The notes under the pieces were generated by a model. The model did not search any database. It was not told where the DNA came from and worked only from the letters and a program-made list of their open reading frames with translations. Below are positions 1 through 5,696 of a DNA stretch of 32,000 nucleotides, piece by piece. The translations under genes and the position numbers were made by a program. Position 1 is the stretch's first letter. Each line of letters begins with the position of its first letter. This stretch comes from Candidatus Micrarchaeum sp. GTDB lineage: Archaea; Micrarchaeota; Micrarchaeia; Micrarchaeales; Micrarchaeaceae. The stretch is taken from contig NZ_CP060530.1 in assembly GCF_016806735.1 (NCBI RefSeq), forward strand, positions 870,001-902,000, given 5' to 3'.

Positions 1-1565
1 TATCGACATACAACAATCAATTGGAAGGGCTTCTTAATGTAAACAATGCCACAGTTGCGAGCACATATTCCACAAATACATATACTACTTCTTCAAGTGT
101 AGGCAATTACAGCGCATTGTTTTATGATAACGGAAACAACAATTACACGTCTGTATCAAAATCAGGAAGCTTCTCGATACTCCCGAAGCTTTATACTGTG
201 AACTTTACTGAAAATGCAAGCACAGGCACTACAGGCACATTATCCGTAAGCGCACCTTCAGGATATAATTTGTATCTTTGTGATGGAGGCGCAGGTAATG
301 CTGGGATAACATATAGCACAGGAACAACTGATGCTTCCGATACATATTCTTACATAGGGCACCAGACAGCTAATACATGTACAGAAACTACTACAGGGCC
401 TGATTTAACGGAAGGAATAATAGGCATAAAAGCATCACCAACCTATTCATTGGCAACAAGCACTGGAACAGCTACAGACAGCTTAACGTATAACGTAACA
501 AAAAATGACTCGTTCGTTGCGATAATGATCTCTTCGGGATATTTTGGCTTATCCTCGGCACCCGTGATACCAAGCGGATGTACGGAAAAGGCATATATTA
601 CTGGAGGGGATACCTATGAATCCGCATATATAGCGATATGCCAATCCCAAATAAAGGGTCAATATTCAATAAGTGCATCTTCTTCCTCGGGAGGTTATAT
701 AACAATTGGCGCATATGTGTTTCCGCCATATTCATTGACATTGGATGACAACCCAGCGGCTGGCACCATAACCACCGATGGGAAAACATTCTCGAATGGA
801 GAAACCACCAACGTAATAGGCACAGGAACAATAACGGCAAACCCTCCGAATAACTTCGTGTTTACTAATTGGACAATCAGCAGTGCAAATTTGAGCATTG
901 CAAATGTATATGCGCAGACAACAAACCTTACCGTAATGGGCAATGGAGCAATAACGGCAAGCTATAACGGGATAACAAAATTCGAGGAGAGCGGGCTGCC
1001 TGCGGGGACGGTTTGGAACATAACATACGATAGCATAAGGAATTCGAGTAATGGCAACATGATAAGCTTTGACACTGTGCCAGGAAGCCATGCCTTTAGC
1101 GTAGGCAATGTAATGATAAACGGATATAATTATACGCCAACTACGTATTCTGGAAGCGTAGTAGCAGGAAATACTACGTCCATAATATTTAAGCCCCCAA
1201 TATGCACCATATCGCTCAGCTCCAATTCAGTATCGTTTGGATCTTTAGGGCCTGATAGCACATATCCAGATAATGTAATGGTAACAGACTATAACAAAGG
1301 AAGCGCAGAGGCGCATGTTTTTGTATCTGGGACTAACTGGACATACGGATCTAATAATGCATTCGGATTCGGCGTATCAAATACGACATGGAGCAGTAGT
1401 GCGTTGGCAATATATGGAGGCAAGGTGTTGGAAAAGACAGCCTTCAATACTTCCATAGCAGTATTGCAGAATGGCTCAAGCCCAGTATACTTCGGGCTCA
1501 GCGTGCCGGGAGCAATACCTGCAGGGACATACACACAGAGAATAACGATAACAAACAGCTGTTAA
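1..1565 (+). CDS. Large secreted/surface adhesin-like protein, 5'-truncated by the window edge
   Basis: The reading frame is open back to position 3, so the N-terminus lies outside the window. The protein is Ser/Thr/Asn/Gly-rich with many N-x-S/T sequons. The segment GTITANPPNNFVFTNWTISS...AITASYN resembles a divergent InlB B-repeat. EESGLPAGTVWNITYD matches the GLPxGTxW beta-sandwich repeat of thermopsin-family and archaeal acidophile surface proteins. The last ~120 aa (Cys codon 1203-1205 to Cys codon 1560-1562) align with the mature part of ORF 1620-2153. Confidence 0.8.
   Translation, partial: STYNNQLEGLLNVNNATVASTYSTNTYTTSSSVGNYSALFYDNGNNNYTSVSKSGSFSILPKLYTVNFTENASTGTTGTLSVSAPSGYNLYLCDGGAGNAGITYSTGTTDASDTYSYIGHQTANTCTETTTGPDLTEGIIGIKASPTYSLATSTGTATDSLTYNVTKNDSFVAIMISSGYFGLSSAPVIPSGCTEKAYITGGDTYESAYIAICQSQIKGQYSISASSSSGGYITIGAYVFPPYSLTLDDNPAAGTITTDGKTFSNGETTNVIGTGTITANPPNNFVFTNWTISSANLSIANVYAQTTNLTVMGNGAITASYNGITKFEESGLPAGTVWNITYDSIRNSSNGNMISFDTVPGSHAFSVGNVMINGYNYTPTTYSGSVVAGNTTSIIFKPPICTISLSSNSVSFGSLGPDSTYPDNVMVTDYNKGSAEAHVFVSGTNWTYGSNNAFGFGVSNTTWSSSALAIYGGKVLEKTAFNTSIAVLQNGSSPVYFGLSVPGAIPAGTYTQRITITNSC
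1488..1565 (+). repeat. 78-nt near-identical repeat, copy A (3' end of the adhesin-like ORF)
   Basis: It differs from 2076-2153 at only three synonymous third positions plus the stop codon (TAA versus TGA). Sequence upstream of it is far more diverged. Confidence 0.9.
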
Positions 1566-1619
1566 GAGTAGGCAGGTTTTTAAGCTTTATTAATAAAAGA
1601 ATATTCGGAAGGTGATTTA

Positions 1620-2153
1620 TTGGATATATTAAAGAGAAATTTAAAGGCATCGCTCGCGATTCTAGCAAGCTTACTAATTATGAGCGGCACCATAGCATTG
1701 GCATTGGGAAACGTGGCTTTTGCAAGCTCATCGAATACAGTTACAGCAAATGTTGCTGTCGAAGGGGTGTGCTACATAAGCCTAAGCCCTAATGCGATAT
1801 CGTTTGGTAGCTTATACCCTACGGCAACGCATGCTGACAATGTTTTGGTAACTGATAGCGACCCGTACGGAAATGTGGCGGCCAATGTATTAGTATCAGG
1901 TACTGATTGGGCAAGTTCAACTTACAACTTTGGTGTATCTAATACCACATGGAGCGCTACATCGTCAAACACGTTCTTAACTACAACTCAGCTTACAAAT
2001 TCGCCTGTGCCTACGGGCATATCCATACCTGCGCCCTCACCAACAGTCTCGAATGGGATCACATCAAACTCAATATACTTCGGGCTCAGCGTGCCTGGAG
2101 CAATACCAGCAGGGACATACACACAGAGAATAACGATAACAAACAGCTGCTGA
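1620..2153 (+). CDS. Small secreted protein, a stand-alone copy of the Cys-bracketed module of the upstream ORF (pilin-like candidate)
   Basis: TTG start is 4 nt after GGTGA (1611-1615). There is a Sec-type signal peptide (KRNLK, hydrophobic core, AFA|SSS). The mature part begins with the alternating strand-like SSSNTVTANVAVEG, followed by Cys (1770-1772) and ending in Cys (2148-2150). Shared motifs with ORF1 are ISLSxNxxSFGSL, VLVSGTxW, FGVSNTTWS, and an identical last 25 aa, YFGLSVPGAIPAGTYTQRITITNSC. Confidence 0.8.
   Translation: MDILKRNLKASLAILASLLIMSGTIALALGNVAFASSSNTVTANVAVEGVCYISLSPNAISFGSLYPTATHADNVLVTDSDPYGNVAANVLVSGTDWASSTYNFGVSNTTWSATSSNTFLTTTQLTNSPVPTGISIPAPSPTVSNGITSNSIYFGLSVPGAIPAGTYTQRITITNSC
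2076..2153 (+). repeat. 78-nt near-identical repeat, copy B (3' end of the small secreted ORF)
   Basis: See copy A. Both copies encode YFGLSVPGAIPAGTYTQRITITNSC. Confidence 0.9.
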
Positions 2154-2168
2154 TAAGGAGTGTGCCAA

Positions 2169-2888
2169 ATGCGTTTTAATTACATTGCGGTTGCAGCGCT
2201 TTTGGTACTTTTCTCTTTTTCTTTATTATTTAACGTTTCCAGCGCACAGCTCGGCGAAGTAGCAGGAGAGCCTACATTTTATGTTAACATAAGCGGCACA
2301 TACCATTATAATTACACGTTCATAAACGAAGGATCTACTCCGATACCTTTCAAAACCATTATGACAAGCTTCAGGACAAGCGCAAAGAATTCTACGCCTC
2401 CAGTAGTTACTGCTGACCCGTCTTACGGCACCATACCTCCAAATTCGCAGATACATATTGAAGTGTCAGTATACCTCCCTTCAAAGAACAACACCTCAGG
2501 GATGCAGTGGCAGGGCGTATTCGAGGTGGTGGATAATTCTACATCGAATAAGGTAGGAGGAGCGGTAATAAATGAAGGGGTTGCCAAGATAATAACAGTA
2601 GTGGCAAAGCCTCCGAAGCCTAATTATACAGTTTATATTTTGTCTGCGATAATAGCAATAGCCATAGTTGCCGCTGCAGGCAGTGCAGTTTATTTCAAGG
2701 GCAGAGGAAAGGCGAGGGCTAGGGTGATTAGGGAGGCCGAAGTGGCAAAGAGCAGGGCAGCAGGCTCGAAGAAAGGGAAGGCAACGCAAAGAAGTGCTTC
2801 AAAGAGCAAGAGCAAAAGAAGCACTGGAAAGAAGAAGCCAACACGCAAGAAAAGCACAGGAAAGAAAAATGTTAGAAAGCGCAGATAA
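2169..2888 (+). CDS. Membrane-anchored Ig-like/beta-sandwich ectodomain protein with a polybasic cytoplasmic tail
   Basis: AAGGAG (2154-2159) precedes ATG 2169; the track ORF starts at GTG 2160. There is an N-terminal signal peptide or TM (IAVAALLVLFSFSLLFNVSSA). A beta-rich ectodomain of about 150 aa follows (FINEGSTPIPF, IPPNSQIHIEVSVYLP). A TM helix (YILSAIIAIAIVAAAGSAVYF) is followed by a 63-aa tail with about 28 Lys/Arg. Confidence 0.75.
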   Translation: MRFNYIAVAALLVLFSFSLLFNVSSAQLGEVAGEPTFYVNISGTYHYNYTFINEGSTPIPFKTIMTSFRTSAKNSTPPVVTADPSYGTIPPNSQIHIEVSVYLPSKNNTSGMQWQGVFEVVDNSTSNKVGGAVINEGVAKIITVVAKPPKPNYTVYILSAIIAIAIVAAAGSAVYFKGRGKARARVIREAEVAKSRAAGSKKGKATQRSASKSKSKRSTGKKKPTRKKSTGKKNVRKRR

Positions 2889-2921: not shown

Positions 2922-4778
2922 ATGGACTATCTTTTCAGGTTTGACAAGCCTAGGCCGAATCAGGGCGCCATGGTTAATGACATATATAAAGCGCTCACCG
3001 ATAGGCATGATATATTCATAAATGCTCCTACGGGATTGGGCAAGACGGATGCCTCGCTCGGAGCCGCATTGACATTCGCGCTCAAAAAGGATTTGGACGT
3101 ATTCTTTTTGACCCCAAAGATATCGCAGCACAGGATAGCAATGGAGGCAGTATTGGGGATAAAGAGGAAGTTTGGGCTCGACTTCAGCTTCGCCGACATA
3201 GTAGGAAAGCGCAACATATGCATAAACGACAAGGTAAACGCCATAGAAAGCGACGCTTTTTACGGCTCGTGCGAAAGCCTGGTCAAGGCAGGAAAATGCA
3301 CATATTTCTCGCGATCGAAGAATTTTAGCACAGACGATAAAGGGCTTGCAGATGCCATGGAGAACGGGCACAATGCGCTTCTAGACTATTCCTATGGGAA
3401 AGGAGTATGCGCTTATGAGATAGCAGCCAAGTACGCGAAGAACTGCAGGGTCATAATAGCAGGGTATTCGCATTTATTGAATCCTTACAACAGCGGCGCT
3501 TTCCTGAAGAAGATAGGGCACAGCATAGACAATGCGATTATAATATGGGACGAGGCGCACAACCTCATAAACATAGCGAATTCATATTTAAGCACTTCGA
3601 TATCAGAGCTTGGAATAGATGCGGCCGAAAGGGAATTGAAGGCGATAAACAACAGCATAGATCTTGATTACCTGAAGTTCGCAATGAAGAAGCTCGCCGC
3701 AAAGAAGCTTTCAAAAGGGATGAGCGAGGCCTTGGTTGACAAATCGGACATGTCTGAATTCATGGAAAGCGAGTATGAAAAATTGATAGATGATCTTGAG
3801 AAGGCGGGTCTTGAGTACATACAGGCAAAAAACGCCAAGCGCTCTTCCATACTGCATATAGCAAGGTTCCTAAGGGGATTCCTTGATGCGGATGAATCCG
3901 CCGCGAGGATAATAAAGGCGAGGAACGGGCTCGCAAGGCTCAACGTTAGCTGCTTATACCCCGATAGGGCACTGCCGATATTGCAGGAGGCCTATGCAAA
4001 TGTATTCATGAGCGCCACGATGGAGCCCATGAGGATGTATTCTGATATGTTCAAGGTGGCAAACTCTGAGATGAGAAGCTATGCGTCCCCATTCCCAAAG
4101 CACAATAAGGCCGCATTCATAGATAATGAGTTTACGACAAAATTCTCACAAAGGTCCAACGAGCAGTATATGAAGATGGCAAAAAGGATAGAGGAGATAA
4201 AGGACAGCGTGCCTGGGAGCGTAGCCGTATTCTTCCCGAGCTTTTCCGTGCTCGAGGGCATATCAAGGCACGTGAATGTTGCGAAAAAATATGTGCAGAG
4301 AAGGGAGATGCAAAGCCAGGCTACAGACGCATTGATGAAGCGCTTTACAGAGGACGACGGCTCGATGCTAATGGCAGTCATGGGCGGCAGCTTCAGCGAG
4401 GGCATAGATTACAAAAACAACTCGATAAAGGGCATAATCATAGTGGGCATACCGCTAACTGCGCCTGACCTTGAATTGAAGCTGAGGATTGCATATCTCG
4501 ACAAGCGCTTTGAAGGCAGGGGAATGGATTACGCTTACATAATACCTGCGATAGTGCGCTCGGTCCAGGCGGCAGGAAGGGCGGTAAGGAGCGAGAGGGA
4601 CAGGGCTGTGCTCGTCTTTATGGATAAAAGGTATTCGTGGCGCATGTATATGGCTGCCATATCCAACAGCATAGAGATCTCGGACTCTAAGGATTACATG
4701 AAATCAATAAGGTTCTTCTGGGACTTAAATGATGTAGTAGATAAGGTAGTAAAGGCCAAGCCCGATAAGAACTCCTAA
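2922..4778 (+). CDS. xpd: XPD/Rad3-family (DinG-like) ATP-dependent DNA helicase
   Basis: Contains Walker A APTGLGKT and DEAH box WDEAHNL. Four Cys between motifs I and II (NICIN, GSCES, GKCTY, GVCAY) are consistent with the FeS domain. Motif VI-like VQAAGRAVRS is present. A TATA-like AATTATATAT lies just upstream of the ATG. Confidence 0.9.
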   Translation: MDYLFRFDKPRPNQGAMVNDIYKALTDRHDIFINAPTGLGKTDASLGAALTFALKKDLDVFFLTPKISQHRIAMEAVLGIKRKFGLDFSFADIVGKRNICINDKVNAIESDAFYGSCESLVKAGKCTYFSRSKNFSTDDKGLADAMENGHNALLDYSYGKGVCAYEIAAKYAKNCRVIIAGYSHLLNPYNSGAFLKKIGHSIDNAIIIWDEAHNLINIANSYLSTSISELGIDAAERELKAINNSIDLDYLKFAMKKLAAKKLSKGMSEALVDKSDMSEFMESEYEKLIDDLEKAGLEYIQAKNAKRSSILHIARFLRGFLDADESAARIIKARNGLARLNVSCLYPDRALPILQEAYANVFMSATMEPMRMYSDMFKVANSEMRSYASPFPKHNKAAFIDNEFTTKFSQRSNEQYMKMAKRIEEIKDSVPGSVAVFFPSFSVLEGISRHVNVAKKYVQRREMQSQATDALMKRFTEDDGSMLMAVMGGSFSEGIDYKNNSIKGIIIVGIPLTAPDLELKLRIAYLDKRFEGRGMDYAYIIPAIVRSVQAAGRAVRSERDRAVLVFMDKRYSWRMYMAAISNSIEISDSKDYMKSIRFFWDLNDVVDKVVKAKPDKNS

Positions 4779-5696
4779 GAACAACGGAGGTATTGCAGGG
4801 AGGGCCCTCTTGAATTTTCTAAGTATGAACATTGTTATCATAAGCCCCAGTATTGCTCCGAACACTATGAAGAAGCTCGGGACAAAGCTCAATGTAAGCT
4901 TGTATGCCGCCACAGCGACCATGAGCGGTATGGCAAGATCCCCTGTGCCCAATGCCACGTTGGCGGATACCGGCACCATACCGTTTGTATTGGATCTCTT
5001 CATTATCGAGAGTATCCTTTTGCCTCTTGAGCCAGATTCCTTGAGCTCCTTGTTGTATTCCCTCAACTCCTTTTTGCTGAAGCTCGATTTCGGAAGCCCT
5101 TCCACCTCGTTCATGTCCACCATGAAGGCCAGATTGTTCTCGGTAACCACATTGGCCAGCGTTATCATGTGCTTGGTTATGAACACGGCAACGAAGTCGT
5201 ATATGGCAAGCAGGCCCATGAAGATAAGCGCTACGAAGAAGCTGAAGCCGAACCCCAGCACCACGCCCACTCCGATACTTGCCAATATTGCAGCTACGTT
5301 CTTGAGATTCGTCCATTTGTTCTTTGCGACTACAAGAGCTATGGCTATGATCACAGCTCCTGCTGTCGATATATTTGAGCTTTGCGTAATATACGCGAGG
5401 ATTATGAAGAATACGTAGAATGATGCTATGAATATTATCACGGCCTCTATTATCCTAAACAGCTTAGCCCCGTGATAGAACTTGAATACTATGATCATGG
5501 CGATTGCTATGACGATTATGTAGCCTATAAGCAGGAATGCGCTTGTCGGGCTGTTTGCGACCTGTGCGCTTGCGACCTCGGAATAGGTTGCACCGTTAAA
5601 ATACAACGTGGATATCATGAGCCCTCCGAATTGGACAATCATGAACATTGCTAATATCCCAAGCAGTTGCCTGTTCTCTATAAGCCTTTTTTCCAA
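4725..5696 (-). CDS. Presenilin/signal-peptide-peptidase homolog (A22 intramembrane aspartyl protease)
   Basis: Polytopic membrane protein with the YD motif (LLAIYDFVAVF), the GxGD motif (ALGTGDLAIPL) and a PAL-like ALPAIP near the C-terminus. TTG start is preceded by AGGTG (reverse complement of 5702-5706) and lies 13 nt after the mcm stop. Confidence 0.85.
   Translation of the reverse strand: MEKRLIENRQLLGILAMFMIVQFGGLMISTLYFNGATYSEVASAQVANSPTSAFLLIGYIIVIAIAMIIVFKFYHGAKLFRIIEAVIIFIASFYVFFIILAYITQSSNISTAGAVIIAIALVVAKNKWTNLKNVAAILASIGVGVVLGFGFSFFVALIFMGLLAIYDFVAVFITKHMITLANVVTENNLAFMVDMNEVEGLPKSSFSKKELREYNKELKESGSRGKRILSIMKRSNTNGMVPVSANVALGTGDLAIPLMVAVAAYKLTLSFVPSFFIVFGAILGLMITMFILRKFKRALPAIPPLFLGVLIGLGLYYLIYYII

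Follow-up and report, generated by a model that had tools for sequence, protein, structure and literature searches.

Filaments whose subunits are held together by donor strands are already known from archaea and include the threads of Sulfolobus (Saci_0406/0405), Pyrobaculum AbpA, the cannulae of Pyrodictium, the tafi (TafA/C/E/F) and the Mth60 fimbriae. The archaeal bundling pili of Pyrobaculum (AbpA) are Sec-dependent and polymerise by donor strands (PMC9245690), and in the haloarchaeal tafi TafF is the proposed membrane anchor and TafC the proposed tip (PMC11821415). Here we describe three genes that occupy the first 2.9 kb of a 32,000-nucleotide stretch of DNA from Candidatus Micrarchaeum sp. 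(contig NZ_CP060530.1, positions 870,001 to 902,000 of the forward strand), the whole of which is referred to below as the window. The genes are co-directional, lie in a common reading frame and are separated by short spacers. A sequence-only reading had assigned them to a Sec-dependent adhesive fibre with a tip adhesin (gene 1), a small subunit (gene 2) and a membrane-anchored, immunoglobulin (Ig)-like protein (gene 3), and had called such a fibre little described in archaea. The last statement is dated, as threads, bundling pili, cannulae and tafi have been published, none of which comes from a DPANN lineage or belongs to the protein family reported here.

The three genes of the window are the distal part of a conserved surface cassette that is specific to Micrarchaeota. 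The reading that we favour, and to which we give a probability of roughly 0.55, is that this cassette encodes a donor-strand-linked assembly with an adhesin tip, a small-subunit shaft and, at the base, a membrane anchor and/or chaperone, all without an usher or a classical chaperone. As the protein sequences and a predicted structure suggest, the parts would be joined by donor-strand complementation after Sec export. The role of such an assembly is likely to be adhesion to a host or a biofilm.

The module family and its N-terminal extension

Genes 1 and 2 share a C-terminal module. Gene 2 (Micr_00920; 1620..2153, plus strand) has a TTG start and encodes a small subunit of 177 amino acids (aa), whose precursor is laid out as a Sec-type signal peptide of 35 aa (1620..1724) with a predicted cut between ...NVAFA and SSS, a 15-residue N-terminal extension, SSSNTVTANVAVEGV (1725..1769), which carries the family motif V-x-A-x-V-x-V and is the candidate donor strand, and a single module that runs from Cys51 to the C-terminal Cys177 (1770..2150). 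The n-h-c layout of the signal peptide and its AxA site are kept in 43 stand-alone homologues. Gene 2 matches the hypothetical protein Micr_00920 at 100% identity, as gene 3 does Micr_00921. Gene 1 (3..1565, plus strand) is an open frame that runs off the start of the window, with its 5′ end missing; what remains is the 3′ part of a gene for a large, multidomain secreted surface protein, a candidate tip adhesin or cargo. It ends in a pilin-like module (1203..1562, plus strand; E 5e-52 with the hidden Markov model (HMM) of the module) that opens with Cys, closes with Asn-Ser-Cys-COOH and is 52% identical to mature gene 2. This identity extends over the final 121 aa of gene 1, aligned to residues 50-177 of gene 2 (E 5e-33), so the shared module that the sequence-only reading had described is confirmed and its similarity is not due to chance. 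Neither gene has a sequence match in Pfam, NCBIfam or the PDB; in the PDB, neither the gene 2 sequence nor the family profile matched anything above chance level. The module family has no description in Pfam, NCBIfam or the literature and is new.

An exhaustive profile search with the module, with members clustered at 50% identity, recovered at least 668 clusters at E≤1e-3, 285 of which are at E≤1e-10. Three architectures are found: a signal peptide followed by one module (~160-195 aa), a signal peptide followed by two tandem modules (~315-340 aa), and large proteins (500-3400 aa) whose extreme C-terminus is the module. Stand-alone copies are thus abundant, and the family does not consist only of C-terminal anchoring domains, the situation that had been said to speak against a fibre. 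All named members are Micrarchaeota, as are 34 of the 34 loci found in a species-representative genome set. Some contigs with the cassette (loci L007, L008, L013, L017 and L023) are filed under metagenome-assembled genomes (MAGs) labelled 'Methanothrix sp.', 'Candidatus Marsarchaeota' or 'Gammaproteobacteria'; these labels are probably binning errors in the public records.

The invariant positions of the module are FG, W, NT, YFG, P and GTY. Among 262 modules, both Cys are present in 226, neither in 33 and one only in 3; the 33 are all internal modules, chiefly the first modules of tandem proteins. Because the two Cys are present or absent together, they probably form a disulfide between the residue that directly follows the extension and the C-terminal one (Cys51 and Cys177 in gene 2). 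In most tandem proteins (P0032, P0184 and about 30 others; loci L010, L014, L015, L018, L022, L028, L033 and L038), the first module is without both Cys (GNVIYLS... and ...FENYN) and the second retains both. Their two modules are separated by a linker of ~15 aa and a second copy of the extension motif, a natural in-cis arrangement.

The extension follows the class of the protein. In 174 modules of small subunits and tandem proteins (72 single, 53 first-of-tandem or internal and 49 second-of-tandem), the V-x-A-x-V-x-V motif in the ten residues before the Cys carries 2-4 bits per position, whereas the same positions upstream of 65 C-terminal modules of large proteins, which follow varied domains, carry 0.7-1.4 bits. 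The residues that precede the equivalent Cys in gene 1, SVVAGNTTSIIFKPP, match the end of an internal repeat domain, SVVAGNVTSVAFSEEG, in a full-length orthologue; they belong to the preceding domain, and the module of gene 1 therefore has no extension of its own, as had been noted from the window. This module may be an acceptor-only domain. An extension that small subunits and tandem proteins keep and that large proteins lack ahead of their C-terminal modules (n = 65) is the pattern of donor-strand fibres, in which the tip accepts and the shaft both donates and accepts, and it extends to the family the distinction between tip adhesin and polymerising subunit that the sequence-only reading had drawn. 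The same motif (…TANVLV.CPF…) stands at the mature N-terminus of P680, a further protein of the cassette described below, in 12 of 15 cases, and it is found in 0 of 282 other open reading frames (ORFs) and 0 of 30 gene 3 homologues.

At their other end, the modules of adhesin and small subunit are matched. The last 25 aa of genes 1 and 2 are identical, and the corresponding DNA (1500-1562 versus 2088-2150) has only 3 differences, all synonymous. Within genomes of the Micrarchaeum clade, the adhesin module and the adjacent small subunit are 96-100% identical over their final 25 residues, against 38-46% for the rest of the module in the same pairs; elsewhere, the matched strands share lineage-specific substitutions. 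Matched C-terminal strands are expected if both grooves take the same strand. Mean-field direct coupling analysis of 187 extension-bearing modules (effective number of sequences, 163) gave a signal dominated by indel columns and resolved no partners of the extension. In the window, the remainder of the two modules is ~40-50% identical at the protein level, compared with the near-identical last 63 nucleotides (nt), and near-identical 3′ ends are likewise found in the close relatives L002, L003 and L026. These 63-nt ends are either a gene-conversion tract or the mark of very strong constraint on the C-terminal strand.

An AlphaFold2 model of mature gene 2 that was built with 128 diverse family sequences has a predicted local distance difference test score (pLDDT) of 95.3 and a predicted template-modelling score (pTM) of 0.85; with 12 sequences the pLDDT is 52.6, and the Foldseek list obtained from that model is not significant. 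In the model with 128 sequences, a sandwich is formed from residues 19-141, and the extension (residues 1-18) is not part of any beta-sheet. Of the top 50 Foldseek neighbours in the PDB, about 40 are chaperone-usher pilins or the pilin domains of tip adhesins, with probabilities of 0.9-1.0. They include CfaB (E 1.9e-3), FimG (E 3.4e-3) and CsuA/B (E 5.4e-3, probability 0.97, and E 7.9e-3) and, lower in the list at E 0.015-0.09, the PapGII pilin domain, Caf1, FimA, PapE, PapA, the FimH pilin domain and CsuE. The N-terminal sandwiches of GH123 are also among the neighbours. The model shows a chaperone-usher-pilin-like Ig fold for the ~125-aa module, and the pilin-like fold expected from the window is upheld by the model and its Foldseek neighbours at weak scores.

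A conserved surface cassette of Micrarchaeota

The neighbourhoods of 40 loci were compared by HMM scans and all-against-all clustering of their ORFs. The recurrent families are the module proteins (40), the gene 3 homologues (30), P680 (15) and a MinD-like ATPase (12). P680 is a protein of ~680 aa with a signal peptide, an Ig-rich region and a C-terminal transmembrane (TM) helix but no module; its cytoplasmic tail is conserved (Y...R......L..I.E.I.R), and its mature N-terminus has a TANVxV..C motif. The ATPase (~265 aa) is of the MinD/ParA type and closest to archaeal MinD, with a score below the cut-off of that model. The usual gene order is P680, MinD-like ATPase, large module protein, small subunit(s) or tandem protein and gene 3, and 3 loci are permuted to small subunit, gene 3, P680, MinD-like ATPase and large protein. 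Almost all loci that have a small-subunit gene carry a gene 3 homologue as the next gene downstream, and some loci (L024 and L027) possess two or three small-subunit paralogues. Across 30-40 loci of many MAGs, order and composition persist even where identity is as low as ~35-40%, and the three-gene layout first seen in the window is thus conserved across Micrarchaeota.

The window almost certainly cuts a five-gene cassette, because in its closest relatives, L002 and L005, gene 1 is immediately preceded by P680 and the ATPase and the downstream genes are the same. The sequence-only reading, which suspected further components beyond the window edge, was right on this point, as two further conserved genes precede gene 1 in relatives. 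P680 is located at L002:1640-3682 and the MinD/ParA-type ATPase at L002:3669-4481, and the pair is also present in L005, L016, L019, L025, L026, L031-L034 and L040.

Full-length orthologues of gene 1 have 1265-1786 aa and a signal peptide. Those of L002 and L005 combine the signal peptide with repeated units of ~380 aa, the InlB B-repeat (Flg_new_2, E 3.8e-12) and PGF-pre-PGF domains. In the L002 orthologue (L002:4559-9919), PGF-pre-PGF (TIGR04213) scores 47.8 bits, above the cut-off, and the InlB B-repeats lie within the ~380-aa repeats; this protein is without a PGF-CTERM sorting signal, and the pilin-like module occupies the place where that signal would be expected. Several large module proteins are orphans, some of which share a MAG with a cassette (L030 with L019, and L021 with L022), as expected for alternative tips.

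Gene 3 (Micr_00921; 2169..2888, plus strand; 239 aa from ATG) consists of a signal peptide (2169-2246), an Ig-like ectodomain of ~128 aa (2247-2630), a TM helix (about 2631-2696) and a Lys/Arg/Ser-rich cytoplasmic tail (2697-2885). Its most conserved part is the mature N-terminus, in which A is followed by the invariant QLGE.AG that opens the ectodomain. The Pfam matches are sub-threshold and confined to PapD-like/ASH-type Ig domains, namely Cep192_D6 (E 4.5e-4), CFAP65 Ig, HYDIN/VesB Ig and OCRL ASH, and one homologue has a precomputed PF22076 assignment. Like the PapD-like/ASH/MSP Ig superfamily, gene 3 has a motif of the type 'N-x-G/S-x-x-P-[IV]-x-F ... P-x-x-G-x-[IV]-x-P'. Membership in the PapD-like pilus chaperones is not supported: the protein has one ectodomain and not two, leaves PapD_N and PapD_C unmatched and shows no significant similarity to chaperones, and its C-terminal TM helix and long basic tail also set it apart from the two-domain pilus chaperones. 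The signal peptide, Ig-like ectodomain, TM helix and basic tail described earlier for gene 3 all stand, whereas a PapD chaperone is not demonstrable (P 0.07). The tail is extremely basic over ~60 aa (Lys/Arg/Ser), and a 15-nt tandem repeat of 3.1 copies lies at 2819-2868; across homologues, the tails vary in length and sequence and are always basic.

As read from the sequence, ribosome-binding-like motifs may be present on the plus strand at 1611..1615 (GGTGA, 4 nt ahead of the gene 2 TTG) and at 2156..2160 (AGGAG, 8 nt ahead of the gene 3 ATG). Gene 2 terminates in a double stop, TGA TAA. The gene coordinates given in the sequence-only reading are retained, with the ATG at 2169 preferred as the start of gene 3 and the GTG at 2160 as an upstream alternative. 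Downstream of gene 3 are genes for an XPD-type helicase, a presenilin-like protease and MCM. The XPD-like helicase gene (2922..4778, plus strand) and the presenilin/SPP-like protease gene (4725..5696, minus strand) are convergent, and their 3′ ends overlap by ~54 nt (4725-4778), an overlap that recurs in the relatives L002 and L003. In the 32-kb window there are no tRNA genes and no Rfam families at the gathering threshold. A scan of the window for sigma-70 promoters and terminators gave counts near shuffle expectation, with a bacterial model that is not meaningful for an archaeal host.

A proposed donor-strand assembly and its alternatives

In the assembly that we favour, the C-terminal module of the adhesin would provide a groove without an extension and would therefore mark the distal end. 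The 15-residue extension of gene 2 would fill the groove of the adhesin, and the module of gene 2 would accept the next extension, which would generate the shaft of a fibre or short stalk. The chain would end on a donor-only, membrane-anchored protein. P680 lacks a module and has its anchor at the C-terminus; its N-terminus, which bears the extension motif, would thus be membrane-distal and P680 a natural donor-only base. Gene 3, as a membrane-tethered protein with a single PapD-like Ig domain, would most likely be a holdase or chaperone for unassembled subunits, or else a second anchor, and the MinD-like ATPase may act on the conserved cytoplasmic tail of P680. The adhesive-fibre interpretation is retained as far as fold and layout are concerned, without membership in the SCPU family. 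More specifically, and only tentatively, we propose a pilus of chaperone-usher-type pilins, free of both usher and classical chaperone, that is built directly on the cytoplasmic membrane, with the adhesin as its tip, the small subunits as its shaft, P680 as a stalk whose tail is positioned or regulated by the MinD-like ATPase, and gene 3 as a tethered chaperone. Such a pilus would serve the symbiont as a host-attachment device and would be linked to bacterial pilins by ancient common origin or by transfer; this complete picture is possible, at odds well below even.

Several observations weigh against a donor-strand assembly. The extension has a high pLDDT (86-95) in the monomer model and may therefore pack on its own domain. 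The best Foldseek E-value is above 1e-3 (range 1.9e-3 to 1.5e-1), and the TM-scores are just 0.38-0.50. Gene conversion could also explain the matched C-terminal strands. The profile of 262 trimmed modules does not align significantly with mature SCPU in hhalign (probability 5%, P 0.008), and neither does gene 3 with six Csu-type chaperones (probability 0.8%, P 0.07). Filaments seen by cryo-electron tomography at contact sites between Candidatus Micrarchaeum harzensis and its host were attributed, by inference, to the host (PMC8975820), and no filament made by Micrarchaeum is reported in the literature.

The main rival, which we regard as unlikely, holds that the module is a self-sufficient, Ig-like docking domain that binds one-to-one and non-covalently to the ectodomain of gene 3, to P680 or to the S-layer, with no strand swap and no polymer. 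Many large surface proteins with no relation to each other, among them orphans encoded far from any cassette, end in the module as they would in an anchoring domain; a TM-anchored Ig protein is almost always encoded beside the small subunit; and the confident placement of the extension in the monomer model fits a self-sufficient fold. The WxL/DUF916 loci of Firmicutes have a similar layout, with a large protein that bears a C-terminal domain, a small protein of that domain only and a TM-anchored Ig protein. However, no Pfam WxL match was found in the scanned proteins, and the nearest structures of the module are overwhelmingly strand-exchanging pilins and not anchoring domains. Docking also leaves unexplained why the extension is restricted to small subunits and P680, why proteins with two tandem modules exist and why small subunits occur in runs of two or three paralogues (L024 and L027).

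Quite improbable, in our judgement, is that the module proteins are ordinary paralogous secreted glycoproteins, associated with the S-layer or a matrix, which share a domain by duplication and gene conversion and do not assemble together. The organism does have an S-layer and many hypothetical surface proteins (bioRxiv 10.1101/2021.04.28.441871), and the last 63 nt of genes 1 and 2, almost the same in both, resemble a conversion tract. Against this stand the gene order and composition conserved in 30-40 loci, the strict partition of the extension between protein classes, the joint gain and loss of the Cys pair and the motif common to P680, which together argue for a functional unit. A filament of the TasA/camelysin type or of the archaeal bundling-pilus (AbpA-like) type, the other kinship suggested by the sequence-only reading, is very improbable and only weakly indicated, for although such filaments are Sec-dependent donor-strand polymers in archaea (PMC9245690) and the bundling pilus 7ueg is in the Foldseek list (E 0.035, probability 0.63, rank 27), chaperone-usher pilins stand far above it and are more numerous, the top 50 contain no TasA entry, Pfam camelysin/TasA (peptidase M73) is unmatched and no SipW-like peptidase is conserved in the 40 neighbourhoods.

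How DPANN archaea attach to their hosts is an open question, for which the cassette provides named candidate genes (Micr_00920, Micr_00921 and their neighbours) that lie in the one Micrarchaeum in stable co-culture. Our literature search found no link of Micrarchaeota with donor strands and no mention of Micr_00919-00921. If the donor-strand assembly is real, a DPANN lineage would join the archaeal donor-strand filaments, as the first with a subunit resembling bacterial chaperone-usher pilins, and it would illustrate how such pilins can be put together and anchored where outer membrane, usher and periplasmic chaperone are all missing. Defining the family, with its at least 668 clusters, is of value by itself.

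Comparison with known pili and filaments

The most detailed likeness is to the Csu pili and the SCPU family. As in CsuA/B, a Sec signal peptide is followed by a 15-residue extension and by a Cys at mature position 16. An early FG motif and a C-terminal strand of the type G-[TD]-Y-x-[QD]-T-[IL]-x-[IV]-[TE] are also shared, and a relaxed hhalign alignment of the mature sequences is colinear from the extension to the C-terminal strand, at low mact. The module has a pilin-like Ig fold in its predicted structure, with both CsuA/B and CsuE among its Foldseek matches, and, like the large module proteins, the Csu tip adhesin is in two parts and ends in a pilin domain without an extension.

Sequence comparison gives no significant homology to this family. 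The gene 2 precursor has no Pfam match at E≤1, and mature gene 2 matches DUF4402 (PF14352) at E 0.063 with 14.4 bits, below the cut-off of 25.2. Sub-threshold matches to SCPU (PF05229) were obtained with 4 of 12 module sequences (best E 0.003) and with 3 of 43 (best E 0.024), and those to DUF4402 are similar in number. The SCPU profile used for hhalign was built from 16 sequences (CsuA/B, PDB 8cio and 14 plasmid-borne pilins). With signal peptides included, it aligns with the module family at 89.7% probability (E 1.9e-6) over 43 columns that cover the end of the signal peptide, the extension, the Cys and FG; CsuA/B alone against the family profile gives 1.3%. C16 and C63 are invariant in the SCPU alignment, whereas the module has C16 and the C-terminal C142 (mature numbering), so that the partner of C16 in the predicted disulfide would be the C-terminal residue and not the strand B Cys (C16-C63).

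Membership in SCPU was rejected: the Pfam scores are below the gathering score, the profile probability falls to 5% without the signal peptides, the Cys partner is another one, and chaperone and usher are absent. Membership in SCPU/Csu, to which the sequence-only reading had likened the module, is not supported, with sub-threshold Pfam matches, a profile probability of 5% on mature sequences and a different disulfide partner, and the resemblance is at the level of pilin fold and layout. All bacterial SCPU loci taken for comparison have a chaperone and an usher, whereas no chaperone or usher genes recur in the ORF clustering of the 40 archaeal loci. The archaeal cassette is thus without a two-domain periplasmic chaperone, an usher and an outer membrane, and it adds a TM-anchored single-Ig protein, P680 and a MinD-like ATPase.

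The classical chaperone-usher systems (Fim, Pap, CFA/I and Caf1) provide the best structural neighbours of the module. They also share the proposed architecture, in which the adhesin at the tip is an acceptor only, each shaft subunit is both donor and acceptor, and a terminator or anchor closes the base. The differences from Csu apply to them as well; in addition, the base proposed here, P680 and/or gene 3, is integral to the membrane and not a terminator held by an usher (PapH).

To the archaeal donor-strand filaments the cassette is similar in its archaeal host, in having no type IV pilin machinery and no chaperone or usher, in its predicted export by Sec (Sec/Tat in those filaments) and in its beta-rich subunits with an N-terminal donor strand, here a candidate one. 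Several of these filaments also have accessory cap, tip or anchor proteins encoded alongside, as in the cassette. No sequence similarity to any of them was found, and 7ueg alone appears in the Foldseek list, weakly. Unlike the tafi, which have TafD, the Micrarchaeota cassette has no dedicated signal peptidase conserved nearby. The donor-strand principle in archaea is already known; new are the module family, the bacterial-pilin-like subunit, the accessory genes and the DPANN host. Compared with the archaeal filaments described so far, the Micrarchaeota subunit is closer to bacterial chaperone-usher pilins, and its cassette includes a MinD-like ATPase and is restricted to the DPANN Micrarchaeota.

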